Source: a virus
DNA length: 64,000 nt
Virus record (IMG/VR): IMGVR_UViG_3300026097_001200
Coordinates: 1 to 64,000 of that record
Reading direction: 5' to 3' (one strand)
The translations under genes and the position numbers were made by a program. Below are positions 13,788 to 50,466 of the stretch, one piece after another. Within the stretch, counting starts at the first letter, position 1. Each line of letters starts with the position of its first letter. Under the pieces are notes generated by a model, which searched no databases, was not told where the DNA came from, and saw only the letters and a list, made by a program, of their open reading frames with translations.

Positions 13788-14772
13788 TTACGACAGTATA
13801 CCTCGTAATAAACAGCTAGGATATTCTACAGCCAACAGATGTAATAGCCCTAGTCGAGACCTTGTGGTAGATTGGCAGGGCAACTGTTTTGTGTGTCCAT
13901 GTGAAGCATGGCTGCCAGTCAGTGTTGGGCATATTACAGAGTTTGATCAATTGCAAGACGTCTGGCGTAGCACTACTGCACAAGAGTTGCAGGAAGATAT
14001 AAACAGTGGAAATTTTTCTCATTGTGCAGTTGACAGATGCGGTGTGCTACATCATAGTTTGATAAAAAACAATCACATTGTGAGCATCAACGTAGACGAA
14101 AGTTGTAATCTAGCATGCCCTAGTTGCAGGCCAGAAGCTAGAATGATTCAACCCAAAGACGCTGAGTTTGACGAGAAAATTCAGCAGGTGCGACATTTAA
14201 TTGGATTGTTAGAAACATTCGACGAACCGTGTCACATTGTGATGAGTGGTAATGGCGATCCGCTGGCAAGTCATGTGATGCGGCCGTTGATTCGTGAATT
14301 TGTGCCGCGAGAAAATCAAACAATTAGGTTGTTTACCAACGGATTGTTAATGAAAAAACTGTTGCCTAATACAGCCGTTCTAAATAGTATTACACAGTAT
14401 TTTATCAGCATCGATGCAGGCAGTGCAGCAGTATACGAACAGGTAAGACAGCCAGGTCGCTGGGAGAATCTCACTGAAAATTTAAAGTGGTTACAGGGCA
14501 CAGATGCAGAAGTGCTGTTAAAATTTGTATTACAAGCAGACAACTGGCACGATATAGATAATTTTGTTGACCTGTGCGAGCACTACAACTTTCGAGGTGT
14601 GGTACATAGACTGGAAGACTGGGGCACTTGGAGAGACTTTGCCAGCCAAGATGTTGTAGGTAATCTAGCTCACCCCGACCATGAAACTGCACTTGATGCT
14701 TTATCATCTGCTGTAAACAGACATAGCCCATTGGTAGACTTTGGCGCAAGTTTAAGAGACATTGTACAATAA
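13756..14772 (+). CDS. Radical SAM protein with N-terminal twitch/SPASM-like domain
   Basis: CNLACPSC, GNGDPL, TNG, ISIDA; N-terminal C...CFVCPC...C..C. Confidence 0.85.
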   Translation: MLPVPSYHQHNYDSIPRNKQLGYSTANRCNSPSRDLVVDWQGNCFVCPCEAWLPVSVGHITEFDQLQDVWRSTTAQELQEDINSGNFSHCAVDRCGVLHHSLIKNNHIVSINVDESCNLACPSCRPEARMIQPKDAEFDEKIQQVRHLIGLLETFDEPCHIVMSGNGDPLASHVMRPLIREFVPRENQTIRLFTNGLLMKKLLPNTAVLNSITQYFISIDAGSAAVYEQVRQPGRWENLTENLKWLQGTDAEVLLKFVLQADNWHDIDNFVDLCEHYNFRGVVHRLEDWGTWRDFASQDVVGNLAHPDHETALDALSSAVNRHSPLVDFGASLRDIVQ

Positions 14773-16229
14773 TGGAATACACTCAAGATAATTTAACAGA
14801 AAAGCAAAAAGACTATGCTGTGTTTTTGCCTGCAATCAGCAGTTTCTATGCAAACTACATTGGAAAACAACAGTACAGTGAATATGTAGAGCAGAGCCGT
14901 ATGCCGCAGGGCATACAAGACATGGAAATGATGAACTTTTTTAATGATCAAAAAGGTTTGTTCGCATATCGCTATGGGTTATACAGTGCTGGACACGCTA
15001 ACTTGGATTTAAATAAACATGATCCAAAAGAAGCAATGATCCGTGAACGCGGTAATCACACCACACTGTTAGCAGATTCTGGAGGCTTCCAGATAGCAAA
15101 AGGTGTATGGGAAGGAGAATGGGCTAACCCTAATTGCAAACGAGCAGAAAAGTATCGTTCAACAGTGCTGAAATGGTTAGACAATGTAGCAGACTACTCC
15201 ATGACATTGGATATTCCAACCTGGACCTACACTGTGCCAGAGTGTGCAGAAAAGTCAGGAATTCACAGTTATCAAGATGCTGTTAACGCTACCAAGTACA
15301 ACCACGAATACTTTATGAAACATTCGTCAGGCAAAGCCAAGTTTTTGAATGTACTTCAAGGCGGTAACCATCAAGAAGCTGATGACTGGTATGATCTCAT
15401 GAAGCACTACAGTGATCCAAATCGCCACGAAAAATTCTTCCGCGGCTGGAGTATGGGCGGTGCCAACATGGCTGATCCGCATCTTGCACTGAGACGTGTT
15501 GTAACACTTATACATGATGGATTGCTAGAGCAAGGGCAACATGATTGGATGCACTTTCTTGGTACCAGTAAGCTGGAGTGGGCAGTGCTGTTAACTGACA
15601 TACAGCGAGCAGTTCGTCGACATCATAATCCAAACTTTACTATCTCATTTGATTGTGCATCGCCGTTTCTTGCCACAGCAAATGGACAGATTTATACCAA
15701 TACTGTAACTGAACATCATAAAAAGTGGAGTTACAAAATGGAAGCTACTGTGGACAATAAAGCTCTAGCCAGTGACACAAGAAGCTTTAGAGATGCTGTA
15801 ATAGCAGAAGGTGTTCACAGTGTGTTTGACGACAGTCCTGTTAGTGCAAATCTCATGGTAAAAGATGTTTGCAAGTATGCACCAGGAGACGTTAATAAAA
15901 TTGGCAAAGAAGGAAAAACATCTTGGGACAGCTTCAGCTATGCATTAATGATGGGGCATAATGTATGGCATCACATCAACGCTGTACAAGAAGCAAACAG
16001 AAAGTTTGATGCAGGTGTGCATCCTAGCATGCTGGTAGACAATCTCACCGGAACCACATCCAGAGACATTATCGATCAAGTGTTTGCCACGCCCGATTAT
16101 CAAGAACGCTTGGATATTCTAGATCACTACAGCAAGTTCTGGATGGGCATATCAGGAGCAAGGGGAATGGGCGGAAAGAAAGCAGTAAATGCTCAGCGTC
16201 AGTTCAATAATTTATTTGATTTTGAATAA
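14772..16229 (+). CDS. dpdA: DpdA/TGT-like 7-deazaguanine DNA transglycosylase
   Basis: ADSGGFQ, MTLDIP, NVLQG, HFLG, SFDCAS, HN motifs of the TGT fold, in a folE/queD/queE neighbourhood. Confidence 0.8.
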   Translation: MEYTQDNLTEKQKDYAVFLPAISSFYANYIGKQQYSEYVEQSRMPQGIQDMEMMNFFNDQKGLFAYRYGLYSAGHANLDLNKHDPKEAMIRERGNHTTLLADSGGFQIAKGVWEGEWANPNCKRAEKYRSTVLKWLDNVADYSMTLDIPTWTYTVPECAEKSGIHSYQDAVNATKYNHEYFMKHSSGKAKFLNVLQGGNHQEADDWYDLMKHYSDPNRHEKFFRGWSMGGANMADPHLALRRVVTLIHDGLLEQGQHDWMHFLGTSKLEWAVLLTDIQRAVRRHHNPNFTISFDCASPFLATANGQIYTNTVTEHHKKWSYKMEATVDNKALASDTRSFRDAVIAEGVHSVFDDSPVSANLMVKDVCKYAPGDVNKIGKEGKTSWDSFSYALMMGHNVWHHINAVQEANRKFDAGVHPSMLVDNLTGTTSRDIIDQVFATPDYQERLDILDHYSKFWMGISGARGMGGKKAVNAQRQFNNLFDFE

Positions 16230-16968: not shown

Positions 16969-18319
16969 ATACTGGCACAACCAAGGATTTTGCCCAGCTC
17001 CATGGGTAAGTCTGTATGTTGATCCATCTGGCCGAATTGATCATTGCTGTATTAGCCATACCAATCTTGGGTATACTCCACAAGAGAATATTCAAAATAT
17101 TCTTGCCAGTGACCGCAATAGAGAAATCAAACATGACATGCGCTACAACAACAAGCTAGCATTTGGTTGTAGTAACTGCGCTGTAACAGAGGACGTTACT
17201 ACATTGCGAAAGATGATGCTGGATTGGTTCAAAGACACTGATAAAGAATTATACGACAATCCAGATAATTTTCAGCTAAAATATTTAGATTTACGATGGA
17301 GAAATACCTGTAATCTTGCATGTGTTTACTGCGGCCCTGAATGTAGCAGTACCTGGGCACAGGAACTAGATCAGCAAAATCGCATAGACACAGTTCAACT
17401 AGACACTCTAAAAAGCTATATCAATGATCAAATTGAAAATCTTGAACGAGTATACCTGGCAGGCGGTGAGCCATTGATGGTCAAAGACAACGAATGGTTA
17501 TTGCAACAGCTGCTTGAACGAAATAGCAATGTTGAAGTTTGGGTGAATACCAACTTAACTAATATTGACAATAAAATATTTCGCTTGCTTATGAAGCTGG
17601 ATCGTGTTAAATTTATTATTAGTGCAGAAGCTGTTGGAGAACAATTTGATTATATTCGCTATCACGGCAACTGGACCGAGTTTGAAGAAAACTTTAATTG
17701 GTTGCAACAAAATCGGCCACTCAGTATTAACAACTTTCAATGTGTATACAACACACTTACGATGTTTAACTTAGACAAATTTCTGGAGTGGGCTGAAAGT
17801 AAGTTAAATTTACACACTCGTCCTCATCTTGCTGGCATGATTAATATTGTTTATGTTAACAGTGGCACAGGTAGTTGGCTTGATCCTAGACAGTTGACAC
17901 CTGAATTGCTTGAAAAAGCCAAAGAAAAAATCACCTGGTGGAAAAATAGATTTAAATATGATGGTATTATTAAGAAACTTGAAGAAGTTGAATCTATATT
18001 GAATATTCCATACCCAGTGAACAATCTCTATCTTGGGTTTTACTCGCAAATTACTGAACTAGACAACCGCCGCGGTACAAACGCCGCACGAGTTTTTCCT
18101 GAATTATTTCAAAACAGTTGGGAAGAAAATACAAGTGCATTTATACAAAAAACTGAACTTGACAAAATAATAAAATCCCTAGAAACTTGTAATAGTGTAA
18201 AAGATGTGTACAATGTTTATAGACCAGACGAAATTGGCAGTATTATAGAAAAATATCATACTCATCCAACTTTTATACAATTTTTAAAACAAAAGGGATT
18301 TCCTGTAAATGACAGATAA
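16955..18319 (+). CDS. Twitch-domain radical SAM protein
   Basis: CPAPW...CC...CSNC, then CNLACVYC, AGGEP, NTN, YIRY. Confidence 0.85.
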   Translation: MKDHEYWHNQGFCPAPWVSLYVDPSGRIDHCCISHTNLGYTPQENIQNILASDRNREIKHDMRYNNKLAFGCSNCAVTEDVTTLRKMMLDWFKDTDKELYDNPDNFQLKYLDLRWRNTCNLACVYCGPECSSTWAQELDQQNRIDTVQLDTLKSYINDQIENLERVYLAGGEPLMVKDNEWLLQQLLERNSNVEVWVNTNLTNIDNKIFRLLMKLDRVKFIISAEAVGEQFDYIRYHGNWTEFEENFNWLQQNRPLSINNFQCVYNTLTMFNLDKFLEWAESKLNLHTRPHLAGMINIVYVNSGTGSWLDPRQLTPELLEKAKEKITWWKNRFKYDGIIKKLEEVESILNIPYPVNNLYLGFYSQITELDNRRGTNAARVFPELFQNSWEENTSAFIQKTELDKIIKSLETCNSVKDVYNVYRPDEIGSIIEKYHTHPTFIQFLKQKGFPVNDR

Positions 18320-18725
18320 TAGAATGATTTGGGTAACCTTTCAGAAAGAAGGTGTACATAGATACCCAGGTGCTGACACTGATCCAAAGCTGGCAACAGG
18401 CGACTGGGACGATGTTAGTTTCTTAGGATATCCGCATCGACATATTTTTCACTTCAGGGTGTGGATAGAAGTTTTTCATAATGATCGAGACATTGAGTTT
18501 ATTCAATTTAAACGCTGGTGTCAACGTCTATATGAGGAAGTAGAAAGCAGCACAGCAGTGCTAGAATTAGACTATAAAAGCTGCGAAATGATGGCTGACG
18601 ATCTTTATAAGCAGATTGCAAGTGAGTATCCAGGCCGAATTGTATGGATCGAAGTATCTGAGGATAACGAAAATGGTTGCTTTATTAAATATCAACAAAA
18701 ACAAGGAGACCAAGATCATGGCTAA
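18309..18725 (+). CDS. dpdL: QueD-paralogous T-fold protein, DpdL-type (putative CDG decarboxylase)
   Basis: LGYPHRHIF (LxxxHRHxF in place of QueD CxxxHGH), SCEMMA and VSEDNENG T-fold motifs. Confidence 0.7.
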   Translation: MTDNRMIWVTFQKEGVHRYPGADTDPKLATGDWDDVSFLGYPHRHIFHFRVWIEVFHNDRDIEFIQFKRWCQRLYEEVESSTAVLELDYKSCEMMADDLYKQIASEYPGRIVWIEVSEDNENGCFIKYQQKQGDQDHG

Positions 18726-21663: not shown

Positions 21664-22578
21664 ATGAAAATACTAGTAACAGGACATTCAGGATTTATCG
21701 GGTCGCACATTTGCCCACAACTAGAAGCACAAGGGCACACTGTGTATAAACTCAAAAATGATCTACTTGACTATGCAGACGTTAGCGACGAAGTATACAC
21801 GCTAGACCCAGATGTAATTGTGCATCTTGGAGCACGAACAGAAGTAGGCAAAAGTTTTTATGAGCCAATTGCATTTAGTCAAGTAAATTACGTTGGCACA
21901 GTAAATCTGGTAAATGCCGCAGTCAAACTGAAAAATTTAAAATGTTTTATCTTTGCTAGCACAATGGAAGTATACGGATGGCAGCCGGTTAGTGATGAAA
22001 TACGAAACGGACATATGCCTAACACAATGCCGGTGTTCACCGAAGACACTGTGCCACATCCAAATGCACCTTATGCTGTAGCAAAACATGCATGCGAAAA
22101 GTACATAGAATATGCACATCGAAGTTTTGGATTGCCCAGTGCTATGGTAAGACAGACCAATACCTATGGTCGCAAAGACAATGACTTTTTTGTTGTAGAG
22201 CAGATTATTACACAGATGCTGAACAATCCACAAGAAATCAAACTAGGATACCAGCACCCATGGCGCAACTTTTTATACATCGACGATATGATCAACATGT
22301 GGATCAGCCTGATAAACAATGTCGACAGCATAGACGACGCAGAGTTGTTCACAATTGGTCCGGCAAATGCACTTAGCATCGAGTCTCTTGCAGAGACTAT
22401 AGCAGATAAATTAAACTGGCAAGGTACTATTAAATGGAACGAAAAACCACCAAGGCCGGGCGAAATTTTCTTGCTTAACAGCGGTTATGAAAAAATAGAG
22501 CGTTTTACTGGTTGGAAACCAGAAGTAGACTTAGACAAAGGATTAGACTTGACCATAAATATTTGGGACAACAAATAA
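21664..22578 (+). CDS. NAD-dependent nucleotide-sugar epimerase/dehydratase
   Basis: GHSGFIG, STMEVYG, YAVAK, NTYG, RNFLYIDD, RPGE. Confidence 0.85.
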   Translation: MKILVTGHSGFIGSHICPQLEAQGHTVYKLKNDLLDYADVSDEVYTLDPDVIVHLGARTEVGKSFYEPIAFSQVNYVGTVNLVNAAVKLKNLKCFIFASTMEVYGWQPVSDEIRNGHMPNTMPVFTEDTVPHPNAPYAVAKHACEKYIEYAHRSFGLPSAMVRQTNTYGRKDNDFFVVEQIITQMLNNPQEIKLGYQHPWRNFLYIDDMINMWISLINNVDSIDDAELFTIGPANALSIESLAETIADKLNWQGTIKWNEKPPRPGEIFLLNSGYEKIERFTGWKPEVDLDKGLDLTINIWDNK

Positions 22579-22586
22579 GGTCAAAA

Positions 22587-24545
22587 ATGAAACATAACAT
22601 TTATCTGTTCCAAGCACAATACAGTATATCAATCAAAGGCAACCCAGCATATTGGCTGCCTTACAGTGTAGGATGTATTTGGTCATATGCGCAACAGTTT
22701 GAAACTGTTACAGATAATTATAATCTTGCAGGATTAGGTTTTAGAAGAGAACCGCCAGAGCAAGTTGTTGCAAAAATGGACAATCCTGTTATTGCCTGTT
22801 TCAGTTGTTATGTATGGAATGAAAAGTGGAGTTTAGCAACAGCCAAGGCTGTTAAAGATGCTTATCCTGATTGCAAGATCATTTTTGGTGGACCGCAAAC
22901 AACTATTAATATGCCACTTCAATATCCTTTTATTGATTCTGTAATAGTTAGCGAAGGCGAACTAAGTTTTGTACAACTGCTAGACGACTATCGTCTAACT
23001 GGTCGAATTGAGCCAGTGTATAAATCGGAACGAGTAAAAGACCTCGACTTTCCAAGTCCTTATACAATCAAACTGTTTGATCAGTTAATTGAAGATAACC
23101 CTGGCGCAGAATGGAATATGACATTTGAAACCAATAGAGGTTGCCCTTATTCATGTACATTCTGCGACTGGGGCGGTCTAACCATGAGTAAAATCAAAGT
23201 ATTTTCAATGGAAAGGGTAAAAGCTGATCTTAATTGGGCAATTGATAAACCAGTCACCTATTTGATTTGCGCAGATGCAAACTTTGGCATCTTTAAAGAT
23301 AGAGATGTAGAGATTGCCGAGCATATTGTAAAAGTTGCCGATCAAGGAATGTTAGGAGCTGTGAATTTACAATACGCAAAAAATAGCACAGATGTAGTAT
23401 ACGATATAGGTAAAAAACTAGGCAAACTAGGTCGTGGTATTACTATGAGCATGCAAAGCATGAATCCTGATACCCTTAAAGCTATTAAACGTGATAACAT
23501 GCGTATCAATCAGATGACCGACATTATGAAACACAGTGACAGAACTGGTGTGATTACCTATACCGAAGTAATTTTAGGGTTGCCACTGGAAACACTTGAA
23601 AGCTGGAAGCAGGGTTTAGCAGATATATTAGAAATGGGACAACACAATGCTATTGATATGTGGTTTGCCCAAACACTCAAGGGTGCAGCATTAGGCACAG
23701 AAGAAGATCGTCAAAAATATGGCATTGAGACTCAGGTGGTTAAAGATTACTATCCATTGTATCACCCTGATGATTGGAGAGAAATTGAAGAAGAGATCGA
23801 AATCGTTGTTGCTACAAACACAATGTCTAGAAACGATTTAATCGAAGCATATATGTATGCCTGGATGATTATACAACTTCATGCAGCCGGGTATACACAA
23901 GTCATCGCTCGCTATTGCCGTGAAATACACGGTGTAGATTTTAGAACTTTTTACGACGATATCTGGAATAAACTACAGTCAGAAGAATGGGTTGGACCAC
24001 ATTTTGTCAAACTGAAAAATGTAGTAGATCATTATATGAAAACCGGAGAGCTACTAGAAGACGAAACGTTAAAAGGCGGCGCTAAAGGTCACGGAATTCA
24101 CAGCATGAGCTATTACTTTATATATCATAATAAAGATAAGTTTTTTGAACTGGCTATTGACACAGCTAGAAAATTTGCTCCTAGATTAGATCCTAATTTA
24201 CTGGACCTCCAAAAAGCAAAGATTTTTGATCCTACATACTCGTACCCGCTAACAATAGATGCAGAGTTTGATTTAACTACTTACACACCTGTGCATAGTG
24301 TTGTTAGTGTAATGCCAAAAGTTAACGAAAATAAACTGTCTGATATAAAGGAAAAGCTAGATGCTAACGAAAGAGGGGAAAATTTACAAGAAAAAATATC
24401 TTTAGACATGTATTATTTACGCAGGCAAGGTCTAATTAAAACTGATATTTCTTCCCAACCTCGTATAGAAGATGGCTACGCTACCCAAACTGATCATTGG
24501 CCCAATGACAACAAAAAAAATTATCTACTTGACAACGCTGTCTAA
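22587..24545 (+). CDS. Cobalamin-binding (class B) radical SAM enzyme
   Basis: FSCYVWN, IIFGGP, SEGE, RGCPYSCTFC, DANFG, ILGLP.ET. Confidence 0.85.
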   Translation: MKHNIYLFQAQYSISIKGNPAYWLPYSVGCIWSYAQQFETVTDNYNLAGLGFRREPPEQVVAKMDNPVIACFSCYVWNEKWSLATAKAVKDAYPDCKIIFGGPQTTINMPLQYPFIDSVIVSEGELSFVQLLDDYRLTGRIEPVYKSERVKDLDFPSPYTIKLFDQLIEDNPGAEWNMTFETNRGCPYSCTFCDWGGLTMSKIKVFSMERVKADLNWAIDKPVTYLICADANFGIFKDRDVEIAEHIVKVADQGMLGAVNLQYAKNSTDVVYDIGKKLGKLGRGITMSMQSMNPDTLKAIKRDNMRINQMTDIMKHSDRTGVITYTEVILGLPLETLESWKQGLADILEMGQHNAIDMWFAQTLKGAALGTEEDRQKYGIETQVVKDYYPLYHPDDWREIEEEIEIVVATNTMSRNDLIEAYMYAWMIIQLHAAGYTQVIARYCREIHGVDFRTFYDDIWNKLQSEEWVGPHFVKLKNVVDHYMKTGELLEDETLKGGAKGHGIHSMSYYFIYHNKDKFFELAIDTARKFAPRLDPNLLDLQKAKIFDPTYSYPLTIDAEFDLTTYTPVHSVVSVMPKVNENKLSDIKEKLDANERGENLQEKISLDMYYLRRQGLIKTDISSQPRIEDGYATQTDHWPNDNKKNYLLDNAV

Positions 24546-24557
24546 ATACCATACTAT
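24529..24557 (+). promoter_or_regulatory. sigma70 promoter with nested late motif for folE
   Basis: TTGACA-N17-TACTAT; CTAAATA at 24542-24548. Confidence 0.7.
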
Positions 24558-24606: not shown

Positions 24607-25302
24607 ATGAAGAAATACGAAGAAATTATCGAACGCTGTAAGAACGCAGACAAGCGTTACTGGGCTAGCGACAACATTGCTCGCTTGCTACAGAGCGGCG
24701 ACAAAGAACAACTAATTGATGAAGCTACAGAGGCTTTTGAAACTGTGCTAGACACACTAGTGATTGATCGACATACTGATCCTAATTCAAAAGGTACAGC
24801 ACGTCGACTGGCTAAGATGTACTTTAATGAATTGCTTGCCGGCCGCTATGACTATCGTCCTAATGCCACAGCATTTCCTAACGAGGCTGATCACATCACA
24901 AATGACAAATATGACGGCATGCTTGTGGTACGTAGTGAACTTAAGAGTGTGTGTTCACATCATCATCAGCCTGTTACAGGTGTTGCATATATTGGTATTA
25001 TTGCCGCTGATACACTTATTGGCCTTTCTAAATACACACGTATTGCACAATGGTGCGCTCGTCGCGGTACATTGCAAGAAGAACTTGCTATGGACATTGC
25101 CCGTGAGATTATTAGTGCAACAGGAAGCACTGATGTAGGTGTTTATATTCAAGCAACACACGGCTGTTGCGAAAACCGAGGCATCATGGCGCACAGCAGT
25201 CTAACACAGACAACTGTGTTAAAAGGTGCGTTCAAGGACGATCCTGCTACCAAGAAAGAGTTCATGGATAATATCAAACTACAACAGGAGTTTGCTTGCT
25301 AA
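24607..25302 (+). CDS. folE: GTP cyclohydrolase I
   Basis: SVCSHHHQP, GLSKYTR, LQEE, ATHGCCENRG. Confidence 0.95.
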   Translation: MKKYEEIIERCKNADKRYWASDNIARLLQSGDKEQLIDEATEAFETVLDTLVIDRHTDPNSKGTARRLAKMYFNELLAGRYDYRPNATAFPNEADHITNDKYDGMLVVRSELKSVCSHHHQPVTGVAYIGIIAADTLIGLSKYTRIAQWCARRGTLQEELAMDIAREIISATGSTDVGVYIQATHGCCENRGIMAHSSLTQTTVLKGAFKDDPATKKEFMDNIKLQQEFAC

Positions 25303-25744: not shown

Positions 25745-25961
25745 CATTTTTATATTTTATACCAAAGGCCGGCGGCCACAAAAAATTACTGCAAACAATC
25801 ACATCGAAGCATGCGAAAAGTTTTACCAGAAAAACCCAGACTTTCATTTAAGTGAATTAAAAAACATCGAAAATGTACCTGCAAAAAAGGAAAGCAAATG
25901 GCTGACACATTACAAACCGCACAAGAAGACGGAAGAGCACCTTGGCAAGACGAAGTCCTAG
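25737..25961 (+). CDS. Small hypothetical protein
   Basis: Overlap-coupled ORF; ATG at 25737. Confidence 0.45.
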   Translation: MTDIFIFYTKGRRPQKITANNHIEACEKFYQKNPDFHLSELKNIENVPAKKESKWLTHYKPHKKTEEHLGKTKS

Positions 25962-26311
25962 ATACCAAGGATTTTGTTGTATACAATGACGGCTTTCCGG
26001 TAACTCCGGGGCATACACTGATTGTGCCAAAATCAGCTGACCTTGCATCTATTAACAAATGTTTTAGGTACGCACTGGAAATGGGCAATAAAAATGTGGA
26101 CAGCGATGCAAACAATGTCACTGGATACAATGTAGGTATTAACATGGGCGAAAGTGCAGGGCAAACCTGCATGTACCCGCATGTGCATCTTATTTTACGC
26201 AGGGACGGTGATGTGGAAAACCCTCGTGGAGGGATCCGACATTGTGTACCAGGCCAAGGCGATTATACAAAAACACCGGAAGATATCGAAGTTGACCCAG
26301 CCGGGTGCTAA
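25898..26311 (+). CDS. HIT family nucleotide hydrolase
   Basis: FPVTPGHTLIVPK, GINMGESAGQT, YPHVHLI. Confidence 0.9.
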   Translation: MADTLQTAQEDGRAPWQDEVLDTKDFVVYNDGFPVTPGHTLIVPKSADLASINKCFRYALEMGNKNVDSDANNVTGYNVGINMGESAGQTCMYPHVHLILRRDGDVENPRGGIRHCVPGQGDYTKTPEDIEVDPAGC

Positions 26312-26330
26312 ATATCTCCACATCAAATGC

Positions 26331-26394
26331 AGTGGCCTTGGCGTCATCCCACTTTAAAGATTCTGCTGCCATCAAACTTACTCATAAGGAGGCA
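26331..26394 (+). ncRNA. Candidate preQ1-I-like riboswitch variant upstream of queD
   Basis: AGUGG/CCACU 5-bp P1, 13-nt loop CCUUGGCGUCAUC, UUAAA tail; loop complementary to GCCA (26368-71) and to SD AAGG (26386-89); CTAAATA at 26308. Confidence 0.55.
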
Positions 26395-26398
26395 AGAG

Positions 26399-26983
26399 AT
26401 GGGTATTAAAATTAAATCAACAAAAGTATACAAGTATCTACCATGCGGTCACGCACAGTATTTTGATCGCGAAGCAGATGGATCGCCTGGCGAATGTGCC
26501 AGCGTTCACGGATATGATCGCAGTGTGGAATTTACATTCGCAGGAGATATTGACGAAATGGGGTGGATTGTGCCTTTTGGCGAATTAAAAGACGTCAAAA
26601 CATTTTTAGAATACTATTTCGATCATGTCACAGTTCTTCCTGCAAACGATCCAAGACTAGATCAAATCACAGAAGAACTCACAGTGCCAGGCGGACTGTT
26701 GGGTACACTCCGTGTGTTGCCAAGCGGTGTAAGCATGGAGATGAGCAGTGTGTTTATCTGGGAGCATGTTAATCACTATATCTATAAAATAACGAATGGT
26801 CGTTGTTATGTAGAGCAGGTGCGTGTTTACGAACATGATCGCAATGACGCTATGTGCGAAGTAGACGAAGCAACAGCACGAGCAGATGCACAGCGTAAAA
26901 TGTCTTTAGGTGGGACACTGCCTATGAAATCCCATTGGGATTGGGAAGCACCTCAAGACCTAATAAACAGACTTAACACGTAA
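26399..26983 (+). CDS. queD: 6-carboxy-5,6,7,8-tetrahydropterin synthase
   Basis: CGHAQ, CASVHGY, FDH, SMEM, VRVYEHDRN; AAGGAGG SD before ATG at 26399. Confidence 0.85.
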   Translation: MGIKIKSTKVYKYLPCGHAQYFDREADGSPGECASVHGYDRSVEFTFAGDIDEMGWIVPFGELKDVKTFLEYYFDHVTVLPANDPRLDQITEELTVPGGLLGTLRVLPSGVSMEMSSVFIWEHVNHYIYKITNGRCYVEQVRVYEHDRNDAMCEVDEATARADAQRKMSLGGTLPMKSHWDWEAPQDLINRLNT

Positions 26984-29160: not shown

Positions 29161-29591
29161 AGTTTAAAGAATTGTATTTTCACACTGCGGTTATTGCGGT
29201 TGGAGCAAGTTTGTTGAGCAGTGTTGCATTTGCAGAAAATGTAAGAGGTGTAACACAAGATCACTACAAGACTGTGATCAAACAGCGTCCTTACTCAGTG
29301 GAAGTTTGTAAAGAAGTTACTGTTTCTGGTGATCGCACAGGTGATACACTGAAAGGAGCAATCCTAGGCGGGATAATTGGCCATCAGATTGATCATGACA
29401 AAGGATCTGAAATTGGTGCTATTCTCGGCGGAGCTATTGGTCACAACAACTCTACTGCTACCGGTAGCACAAGAACACAATGCCAGACTGAAACACGCTA
29501 CGAAGAAGAACAGCTAGAGGTTTATAACTATTCTACTATTACATTTTGGTCTAATGGTCAGAAACATACAGTGAAGTATACCAGGAAATGA
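29157..29591 (+). CDS. Secreted glycine-zipper 2TM protein (YcfJ-like)
   Basis: Signal peptide; GAILGGIIGHQI...GAILGGAIG. Confidence 0.75.
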   Translation: MKFKELYFHTAVIAVGASLLSSVAFAENVRGVTQDHYKTVIKQRPYSVEVCKEVTVSGDRTGDTLKGAILGGIIGHQIDHDKGSEIGAILGGAIGHNNSTATGSTRTQCQTETRYEEEQLEVYNYSTITFWSNGQKHTVKYTRK

Positions 29592-30457
29592 ATCTACGTT
29601 ACAGCGAAGCATTTTATTCAGTCCAGGGCGAAGGGCAATATGTAGGAGTGCCCAGTGTATTTCTACGAGCCTTTGGGTGCAACTTTAGATGTCAAGGGTT
29701 CGGACTAGATCGAGGGTGGGAACGACAGAAGTACAATCCAGAAGTGGAAAACTTGATTGCCACTGATGTACACAAACAAGACATTTTGTTTGAAGAATTA
29801 CCCATAGTGCACACTGGTTGTGATACATACGCTAGTATCTATCCTGAATTTAAAAAGTTCATGATGAACCGCAGTGTAGACGAAGTGGTAGATCATTTGC
29901 TAAGTCTTACACCAAACGGCTCTTGGACCATGGAAAATGGGCAGGATGTACACTTGATACTCACAGGTGGCGAGCCTATGCTTTGGCAGCGGTTCTGGCC
30001 TGCGCTGTTTGCGCATGAAAAAATGCAGGGCTTGAAAAATGTTACGATTGAGACAAATTGCACACAACCTCTTCAGAGAGAATTACTTGATTACCTGGAG
30101 ACAGAAAGAAGTTTTAAACTCACCTGGAGTTGCTCTCCCAAGCTCACAGTCAGCGGGGAGTCCTGGAATGATGCGATATGCCCTAAAATCGCTGAGTCTT
30201 ATGCTGGTGTTAGCAACAGTGACATTTATTTTAAGTTTGTGGTTGCTGATGCAGTGGATGTGGACGAAGTTGGCACTGCTGTGGCAGAGTACGCCACACT
30301 GGGTATCCAATGCCCGGTTTATGTTATGCCGTTGGGCGGGCGCAGTGAAGAATACAGTCTCAACACCGAACGAGTGGCGGAGCTCGCAATGGAGCGGGGA
30401 TGGAGATATTCGCCCCGGCTCCACGTCGACATCTTTGGCAATGCATGGGGAACTTGA
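29588..30457 (+). CDS. queE: 7-carboxy-7-deazaguanine synthase
   Basis: FYSVQGEG, VFLRAFGCNFRC...GCDT (long insert before third Cys), TGGEP, IETN, SPK, RLH. Confidence 0.9.
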   Translation: MNLRYSEAFYSVQGEGQYVGVPSVFLRAFGCNFRCQGFGLDRGWERQKYNPEVENLIATDVHKQDILFEELPIVHTGCDTYASIYPEFKKFMMNRSVDEVVDHLLSLTPNGSWTMENGQDVHLILTGGEPMLWQRFWPALFAHEKMQGLKNVTIETNCTQPLQRELLDYLETERSFKLTWSCSPKLTVSGESWNDAICPKIAESYAGVSNSDIYFKFVVADAVDVDEVGTAVAEYATLGIQCPVYVMPLGGRSEEYSLNTERVAELAMERGWRYSPRLHVDIFGNAWGT

Positions 30458-49790: not shown

Positions 49791-50223
49791 TGAAAAGCGA
49801 ACTTGAACTTGCAATTGATCGCATGATCGATGCACAAAAAAAACTGTACGGAGCAGATGCATACCTGTATGCCACAGCCAATCTACAAGGTGCGTTGGTA
49901 GGATCTGCCGCTGCACTCAGTGACTTTATGGTTGACAGCTTGATTGAAACATTTAACGATCGTGCAAAAAAAGTTGAACAAGAAGCAATCATCAAAGCAT
50001 TTAATCAAGAGGTTCCAATTGTATGAGTTATTTGCTCTTATCGGTTGCGCTAGGATTAGAAATTTCTTATACTAGCAAGAATGTTTGTCAAGAAGCACTT
50101 GAACAGGTGCGAGAGCAGGACAGCAAAGCAATTTGTATTCCTGCAGGCAAAGACAAAACCAGTGAACAGTTTGATCTATTTTTAAACATGATTGAACAGT
50201 TACAAAAAGTTGAACAGAAATAG
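49790..50223 (+). CDS. Two small hypothetical proteins (49790..50026, 50023..50223)
   Basis: Translationally coupled ORFs. Confidence 0.55.
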
Positions 50224-50296
50224 CCGAGTTGGTCTAATGGTATGACAGGGGTCTCCAAAACCCTTAGCGGAGGTTCGATTCCTTCACTCGGTGCCA
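50223..50296 (+). tRNA. trnW: tRNA-Trp (CCA)
   Basis: Acceptor GCCGAGT/ACTCGGT, anticodon loop CTCCAAA, GTTCGA T-loop, G73, encoded CCA. Confidence 0.9.
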
Positions 50297-50309
50297 GTTT
50301 TAAAAGTTT

Positions 50310-50385
50310 TGGGATATAGCTCAGTTGGTAGAGCAGCGGACTGTTAATCCGCTTGTCGCAGGTTCGAGCCCTGCTATCCCAGCCA
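50310..50385 (+). tRNA. trnN: tRNA-Asn (GTT)
   Basis: Acceptor TGGGATA/TATCCCA, loop CTGTTAA, G73, encoded CCA. Confidence 0.95.
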
Positions 50386-50390
50386 TTTTT

Positions 50391-50466
50391 GCTACGGTGG
50401 CTCGAATGGTTAGGCAGAGGACTGCAAATCCTTTTCACGCAGGTTCGAATCCTGTCCGTAGCTCCA
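50391..50466 (+). tRNA. trnC: tRNA-Cys (GCA)
   Basis: Acceptor GCTACGG/CCGTAGC, loop CTGCAAA, U73, encoded CCA. Confidence 0.93.

Follow-up and report, generated by a model that had tools for sequence, protein, structure and literature searches.

The stretch analysed here, referred to as the window, is the first 64,000 nt (positions 1 to 64,000) of the 105-kb IMG/VR virus record IMGVR_UViG_3300026097_001200, which derives from an uncultured jumbo phage. Within it, 87 nt separate the stop codon of an open reading frame (ORF) of the HIT family (25898–26311) from the ATG at 26399 that opens a PTPS/QueD-like gene, and this queD leader holds a conserved RNA element. The product of the gene matches PF01242 (8.4e-15) and the QueD-like family phrog_2389 (3e-29), and falls below the TIGR03367 equivalog cut-off. 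The ATG lies seven bases 3' of a Shine-Dalgarno (SD) sequence, AAGGAGG, and the tblastn alignments of relatives start at residue 1, the Met of this ATG. An initial annotation of the leader had described a 5-bp helix P1 closing a 13-nt loop, an A-containing tail and a preceding CTAAATA motif, and had proposed a variant of the class I riboswitches (preQ1-I) for preQ1 (7-aminomethyl-7-deazaguanine). On re-reading the sequence, these parts are all in place: the loop CCUUGGCGUCAUC occupies 26336–26348, the tail following P1 starts with UUAAAG, and CTAAATA stands before the leader (Table 1).

A pseudoknot with three covarying helices

A QueD protein search of IMG/VR returned 79 loci, whose leaders show a common element in 31 distinct versions; this is our unbiased set. 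IMG/VR was also scanned with two patterns that cover the aptamer alone; the pattern with the GUGG form of P1 recovered at least 119 stretches and that with the GAGG form at least 120. In all, at least 223 distinct leaders from phages belong to the family. When whole leaders were aligned with MAFFT, the 5' strand of P1 and parts of P2 were misplaced owing to varying loop lengths, and these alignments were replaced by ungapped sub-alignments and covariance model (CM) alignments. The minimum free energy (MFE) of the leader as a single sequence is ordinary (z = +0.39), which is uninformative because the pseudoknot is invisible to that method.

Covariation across the family supports three helices, and positions 26331–26371 of the window form an H-type pseudoknot composed of P1 (AGUGG/CCACU), P2 (UGGCG/UGCCA) and a 2-bp extension, P2a. 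P1 follows the general form N-G-N-G-G with C-C-N-C-N. The CM alignment of 97 distinct sequences confirms it by covariation in homologous queD leaders: 98.4% of its cells are paired, the closing G-C pair is invariant, and the middle pair is U-A in 88, A-U in 7 and C-G in 2 sequences. Among 223 distinct sequences, the variants of P1 are GUGG/CCAC (115), GAGG/CCUC (105) and GCGG/CCGC (2).

The initial annotation had offered two partners for the loop, the GCCA of the tail or the AAGG of the SD (26386–26389). The first pairing is real and corresponds to P2, which joins U26339–G26343 to U26367–A26371. An unrestricted search for the best loop–tail helix was noisy (10.8 for own and 10.2 for cross combinations) and was replaced by an anchored test. 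Here, cognate loops and tails form 111 consecutive pairs, compared with 48 ± 7.9 when tails are permuted (0/20000 as high). In an ungapped alignment of 29 sequences the covariation score of P2 is 0.561 versus 0.226 ± 0.037 in 500 shuffles, none of which reached it, and all slid registers score at most 0.2. At least 37 distinct P2 3' strands occur. The second pairing, of CCUU with the SD, found no such backing: the C and U of L1 never vary (but for a single A, see below), and none of the folds needed it.

P2a consists of C26345-G26365 and A26346-U26364. It continues P2 beyond a conserved U26344/C26366 mismatch and leaves only U26347 and C26348 between itself and P1. The A26346-U26364 pair is replaced by G-C in 64 of the 223 distinct sequences and is A-U in the other 159, with zero exceptions (A-U 89 and G-C 28 in 117 homologous leaders), and the G-C form is found on three different types of expression platform. 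In the unbiased set the same pair is AU in 25 and GC in 4 sequences, beside a C-G pair in 29 of 29.

The unpaired bases at the helix junction are conserved as well. About 15 of them hardly change between phages and QueD subfamilies that otherwise differ greatly. The first three positions of L1 read A73/C10/U34, C117 and U116/A1 in the 117 leaders, and the unbiased set likewise has an invariant C and a nearly invariant U. In L3, three to four positions are an invariant or near-invariant A, and U and C come next; the segment made up of L3, P2a and C26366 is 13 nt long in 29 of the 31 unbiased leaders. Of 116 cases, 111 have C directly before the P2 3' strand. Immediately 5' of the P1 3' strand, at C26348 of the window, 222 of 223 distinct sequences have C and the sole exception has U. 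C26348 occupies the position of the specificity cytosine of preQ1-I riboswitches; by analogy, it may act as the specificity base here. A change at that cytosine position gives purine and preQ1-I aptamers a different target. The U variant comes from three contigs, each of another metagenome (L023, L024 and L025, position 2956 in each), and their L2 reads UCACU.

Table 1. Features of the queD leader and of related genes in the window
Feature	Position	Strand	Basis or remark
P1 5' strand AGUGG	26331–26335	+	pairs with 26349–26353
L1 CCU; C26337 and U26338 conserved, first base variable	26336–26338	+	leader comparison
P2 5' strand UGGCG	26339–26343	+	pairs with UGCCA 26367–26371
U26344 (conserved U facing C26366), then P2a 5' strand C26345-A26346	26344–26346	+	covariation with U26364
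Junction bases U26347 and C26348	26347–26348	+	C26348 at the preQ1-I specificity-cytosine position
P1 3' strand CCACU	26349–26353	+	P1 covariation
L3 UUAAAGAUUC: A-rich start, then conserved A-Y-U-C	26354–26363	+	leader comparison
P2a 3' strand U26364-G26365, then C26366 (facing U26344)	26364–26366	+	covariation
P2 3' strand UGCCA, switching sequence	26367–26371	+	pairs with 26339–26343 or, via C26369–A26371, with the start region
Hairpin sequestering the ribosome-binding site: CCAUC 26369–26373/GAUGG 26398–26402, CUU 26377–26379/AAG 26394–26396, CUC 26381–26383/GAG 26389–26391	26369–26402	+	MFE
Shine-Dalgarno AAGGAGG	26386–26392	+	sequence reading; kept before the ATG in homologous leaders
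queD-like gene, PTPS family, 194 aa	26399–26983	+	PF01242, phrog_2389
CTAAATA, T4-type late-promoter-like motif overlapping the TAA stop (26309–26311) of the HIT-family ORF	26308–26314	+	sequence reading
FolE	24607–25302		window
QueE-like	29588–30457		phrog_2076, 1.5e-50
DpdL-like T-fold protein, 138 aa, FLGYPHRHIF	18309–18725	+	signature LxxxHRHxF; no Pfam match

Distribution and relation to known riboswitches

The element is tied to queD. The CM matches 40 of the 79 QueD loci, once each and always just 5' of queD. Among the matches listed for the GUGG pattern, the downstream ORFs fall into one QueD-like similarity group in 80 of 80 cases; among those listed for the GAGG pattern, 117 of 118 belong to the same group, and the remaining one encodes a PTPS-like protein of 306 aa. 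All complete downstream ORFs are PTPS/QueD-like, and the very different subfamilies found behind the motif all score as PF01242. Beyond queD there is no universally adjacent partner gene: the commonest neighbours occur in 60–72 of 137 contexts. In a complete 208-kb phage genome (L011/G001, 153516–156551 on the minus strand) the motif precedes QueD, QueE and FolE, which form a compact run, and in other genomes the motif-bearing queD lies 50–65 kb from folE and queE.

Most of the motif-bearing contigs are, according to CheckV, fragments of jumbo phages of roughly 200–520 kb with T4-like genes. Among 185,579 prokaryote species genomes the pattern matched twice, both times on contigs of 5.5–6.3 kb in metagenome bins. 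These contigs, CAIJZG010000002.1 and JBDNIA010000411.1 (L204 and L205), come from Bacteroidota metagenome-assembled genomes, one of them assigned to Crocinitomicaceae, and carry a phage gene set (QueD, a UvdE-like protein and conserved phage ORFs). Either phage DNA was binned wrongly here, or the bins hint at the host. Searching 50,697 cultured-phage records by blastn with three leader types yielded chance matches only. In eight cultured phages with QueD or DpdL-like genes (PA5oct, Phosso, ACP17, phiST, X1, Ahp1, D479 and RHph_I1_18), no CM match exceeded 14 bits, and our literature searches found no description of this queD-leader RNA.

The element stands at the 5' end of the transcript in many loci. 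A sigma-70-like promoter (TTGAY-N15-20-TANNNT) ends 3–12 nt before P1 in 51 of the 117 leaders, and the YTAAATA/TATAAATA motif lies 2–12 nt before P1 in 9 of them. CTAAATA is mildly enriched in the window, with 17 copies against 10.7 ± 3.0 expected, and its sequence suggests that it may be a late-promoter motif of this phage group. One copy, at 24542–24548, ends the ORF preceding folE, just as the copy before the leader ends the ORF preceding queD.

The element has no counterpart in Rfam. At gathering scores the window contains three tRNAs only, and no family matches 26200–26500 at E<=10. The class I preQ1 model RF00522, which has a gathering threshold of 39 bits, gives no match at the element at E<=10 in the 105-kb record or in five other motif-bearing phage genomes; its weak matches of 9–16 bits in these six genomes all lie elsewhere. 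The queD-leader element is a real and strongly supported RNA pseudoknot of phages that is uncatalogued, and it is not a member of RF00522. Of the initial proposal of a preQ1-I variant, what holds is a conserved leader with a preQ1-I-like H-type fold found exclusively at queD, while the assignment to the family does not.

The comparison with the described preQ1 classes (PMC11625349) brings out both likeness and difference. As in preQ1-I (types I–III, known for example from B. subtilis queC, T. tengcongensis, C. antarcticum and E. coli), a small H-type pseudoknot combines a 5-bp P1 topped by a G-C pair with a short covarying P2, an essentially invariant C sits directly 5' of the P1 3' strand above this G-C floor (PMC11625349), L3 starts A-rich (YUAAA), and the element occupies the leader of a 7-deazaguanine pathway gene. 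The junction holding C26337, U26338, C26348 and A26360-U26362-C26363 resembles the class I pocket, and the pocket of the element may work in a similar way. However, P2 is longer here, with 5 bp plus the 2-bp P2a and its conserved U/C mismatch. The L1 of preQ1-I, which is U-U or U-C, opens with a conserved U that reads the ligand (U6; UU in types I and III), whereas here it reads N-C-U. In preQ1-I, L3 is an A-tract of about 6–8 nt, and its final A (A29/A30), next to the P2 3' strand, makes contact with the ligand; here L3 runs YUAAAUA, then Y-U-C, then Y-G (paired in P2a) and then C, so that L3 and P2a together take up 13 nt. The base before the conserved C varies (U64/A34/C19), and neither the 'UC' rule of type I nor the 'AC' rule of types II and III fits. 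The P2 3' strand of preQ1-I overlaps the SD or favours a terminator, giving OFF control, whereas the present one is an anti-start strand, which points to ON logic. Finally, the present element is found in phages only. The likeness in design may therefore mark either a diverged relative or a convergent fold. The preQ1-II (RF01054) and preQ1-III (RF02680) classes share the metabolic neighbourhood and read the ligand with a cytosine, but have HLout-type folds (PMC11625349), and both families are absent from our Rfam scans.

Expression platform and competing readings

The sequences between the knot and queD vary widely but have one thing in common: the 3' strand of P2, with the bases that follow, is complementary either to the start-codon region or to the SD. 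In the window, the MFE structure is a hairpin of -9.3 kcal/mol that sequesters the ribosome-binding site (-12.5 kcal/mol together with P1). Across the family, the P2 3' strand plus 4 nt fits its own start region better than permuted ones (z = 9.2, 0/5000), and at least two P2 bases are used in the start-region helix in 92 of the 117 leaders. A first search for the anti-start register chose wobble registers and was repeated with a CAUC-AAAC anchor; in the 64 leaders of this type, the start helix reaches into P2 by 116 pairs versus 90.4 ± 4.9 (0/10000). With P1 enforced, the accessibility of the start codon is 0.27 with native P2 3' segments and 0.49 with shuffled ones (96/117 leaders, p = 1.5e-15). 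No terminator was found after the element.

Because of this complementarity between the P2 3' strand and the start-codon region, formation of the knot should free the ribosome-binding site, which corresponds to an ON switch. This runs counter to the feedback repression envisaged in the initial annotation. Without ligand, CCAUC (26369–26373) and then CUU and CUC would pair with GAUGG, AAG and GAG, so that part of the SD and the start codon itself would be hidden and queD would not be translated. With ligand, the knot would hold 26364–26371, the long hairpin would be blocked and the SD freed, allowing translation of queD and probably of the genes behind it. The add adenine riboswitch of Vibrio vulnificus is such a translational ON switch, in which the ligand-bound aptamer captures a strand that otherwise pairs with the ribosome-binding site. 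The predicted working principle is the same, but the folds are unrelated (a three-way junction versus a pseudoknot), and we found no sequence or family relation between the two.

On balance, we lean towards the view that the leader (26331–26402) represents an uncatalogued candidate riboswitch class, so far phage-only, in which a pseudoknot extended by P2a would switch translation on through its P2 3' strand. The element shows what is generally expected of riboswitches: its structured aptamer is conserved, its platform varies while the logic is kept, and it is always linked to the same family of metabolic genes.

Several observations weigh against this view. The conservation figures from the pattern scans are partly dictated by the patterns themselves. 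The effect of the native segment on accessibility emerges only with P1 enforced: in the unconstrained shuffle test the ribosome-binding site is as accessible in native leaders as in shuffled ones (0.440 vs 0.445, p = 0.51), since a nested fold can contain P2 as a simple hairpin in place of P1. Even with P1 enforced, the accessibility of the SD in the 117 leaders equals that of shuffles. When 26367–26371 are locked, a residual hairpin of -4.3 kcal/mol (UACUCAU 26379–26385/AUGGGUA 26399–26405, whose loop contains the SD) can mask the AUG even while P2 is formed. Some short platforms, such as those of L157 and L120, have the SD 3–8 nt after P2 and no clear sequestering helix; these would be more in keeping with steric OFF control. 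It is also unusual, with no evident reason for it, that a biosynthetic gene should be governed by an inducer, and a small molecule as the ligand and inducer of the knot is something we infer. As to the start region itself, a conserved block, AAACUUACUC or AAACUUGCUA, tracks codons 2–3 in relatives (GGU AUU/AGU UUA, or GCA AA), and the platform may have a third state.

A knot that binds no metabolite is a rather unlikely explanation. It could be a protein operator, for example for autoregulation by QueD or for a phage translational repressor, or else a constitutive element for mRNA stability or 5' folding. Protein-bound pseudoknots do exist in phage leaders, that of T4 gene 32 being one, and the position at the transcript 5' end in many loci would suit such a function. 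However, the near-invariance of the unpaired junction bases across very different QueD subfamilies and phages is difficult to reconcile with it, as is the lack of a universally adjacent partner gene. Moreover, the persistence of the competing start-codon helix in unrelated platforms favours a regulated switch.

It is improbable, in our view, that accumulating pathway product represses queD through a diverged preQ1-I riboswitch whose bound knot blocks the ribosome sterically or through loop–SD pairing. The shared fold, G-C floor, C before the P1 3' strand and A-rich L3 speak for such an origin, as does the link to a 7-deazaguanine gene, and the few short platforms with the SD close behind P2 have little alternative structure. 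On the other hand, RF00522 never scored the element, the P2 3' strand is an anti-start sequence, the opposite of an SD, and P2 lies 14–38 nt from the AUG in most leaders; loop–SD pairing has no covariation support.

The initial annotation had also raised the concern that the region might be coding, with queD starting at ATG 26327 and the conservation reflecting an N-terminal extension; in the window the frame from 26327 does stay open into queD, but in-frame stops between P1 and the AUG in 80 of the 117 homologous leaders speak against this start, and with loop and platform length differences that are not multiples of three, substitutions that are compensatory in RNA pairs, and a strong SD before ATG 26399, at whose Met the tblastn matches open, this explanation is hardly credible.

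Pathway genes, possible ligand and significance

The queD-like gene is accompanied in the window by genes for FolE, a QueE-like protein and MetK, and FolE and QueE are encoded in all five large motif-bearing genomes. The DpdL-like protein has 63% identity to a protein of Sinorhizobium phage Phosso, 59% to one of PA5oct, 51% to the homologue in ACP17 and 31% to CGPG_00067 of phiST, the prototype of DpdL, the proposed decarboxylase of 7-carboxy-7-deazaguanine (CDG). QueC (PF06508) and TGT (PF01702) gave no match in the record of the window or in the five large motif-bearing genomes, two of them complete; in 50 further contigs, three of them complete, QueC had 3 partial matches only, of 24–26 bits. 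The initial description of a phage without queC and with a DpdL-type gene is borne out; the gene carries the signature LGYPHRHIF, and no queC was detected. The DpdL-type pathway of phages such as phiST and ACP17 likewise comprises FolE, QueD-like and QueE-like proteins and the LxxxHRHxF protein. The paper on that pathway describes no RNA regulator, and neither these two phages nor the six other cultured phages that we searched have the motif.

These genes belong to a long biosynthetic island on the plus strand (13717–34356). It also encodes two SPASM radical S-adenosylmethionine (SAM) enzymes, a GT-B glycosyltransferase, two epimerase/dehydratases and a fragment of a DegT-type aminotransferase, a B12-radical SAM enzyme (22512–24545), the HIT protein, a glycosyltransferase-like protein, a methyltransferase, a phosphoribosyltransferase and an AMP-binding enzyme. 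One plus-strand ORF of 485 aa (14772–16226) has no Pfam, PHROG or PDB sequence match. It is placed by ESM Atlas (0.93) near a viral cluster in which 17% of members have PF01702, and it may be a very divergent DpdA; we regard this as a lead only. The three tRNAs are encoded by adjacent genes at 50223–50463 on the plus strand (RF00005, 51–73 bits).

The pathway probably ends in 7-deazaguanine or CDG and not in preQ0 (7-cyano-7-deazaguanine) or preQ1, which makes a ligand other than preQ1 plausible; such a ligand is also a fair inference from an undetected queC combined with a DpdL-type gene. The likeliest candidate would be a heterocycle with a guanine-like face from the route that leads from GTP to 7-deazaguanine, such as 7-deazaguanine itself, CDG, a pterin intermediate or guanine. 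A more specific proposal, which we put forward tentatively and regard as possible but doubtful, joins these points: a virus-only riboswitch class in which a preQ1-I-like knot with P2a and a different pocket would bind a non-preQ1 ligand (for example 7-deazaguanine, CDG, a pterin intermediate or guanine from DNA base exchange) and switch on translation of the first committed enzyme of a guanine-replacing DNA pathway.

To our knowledge, no riboswitch has been reported as phage-specific. Riboswitches are rare in phages (PMC9004378). If the proposal is true, a small and abundant aptamer of about 41 nt would control a pathway of phage DNA hypermodification, with a preQ1-I-like fold, inverted logic and an altered pocket. 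This would be a natural case of rewiring in a minimal pseudoknot aptamer, and possibly a new ligand sensor for 7-deazapurines or pterins. With at least 223 distinct members, the family is big enough for structure determination and ligand screening directly, and it may offer a handle on how jumbo phages time the modification of their DNA.

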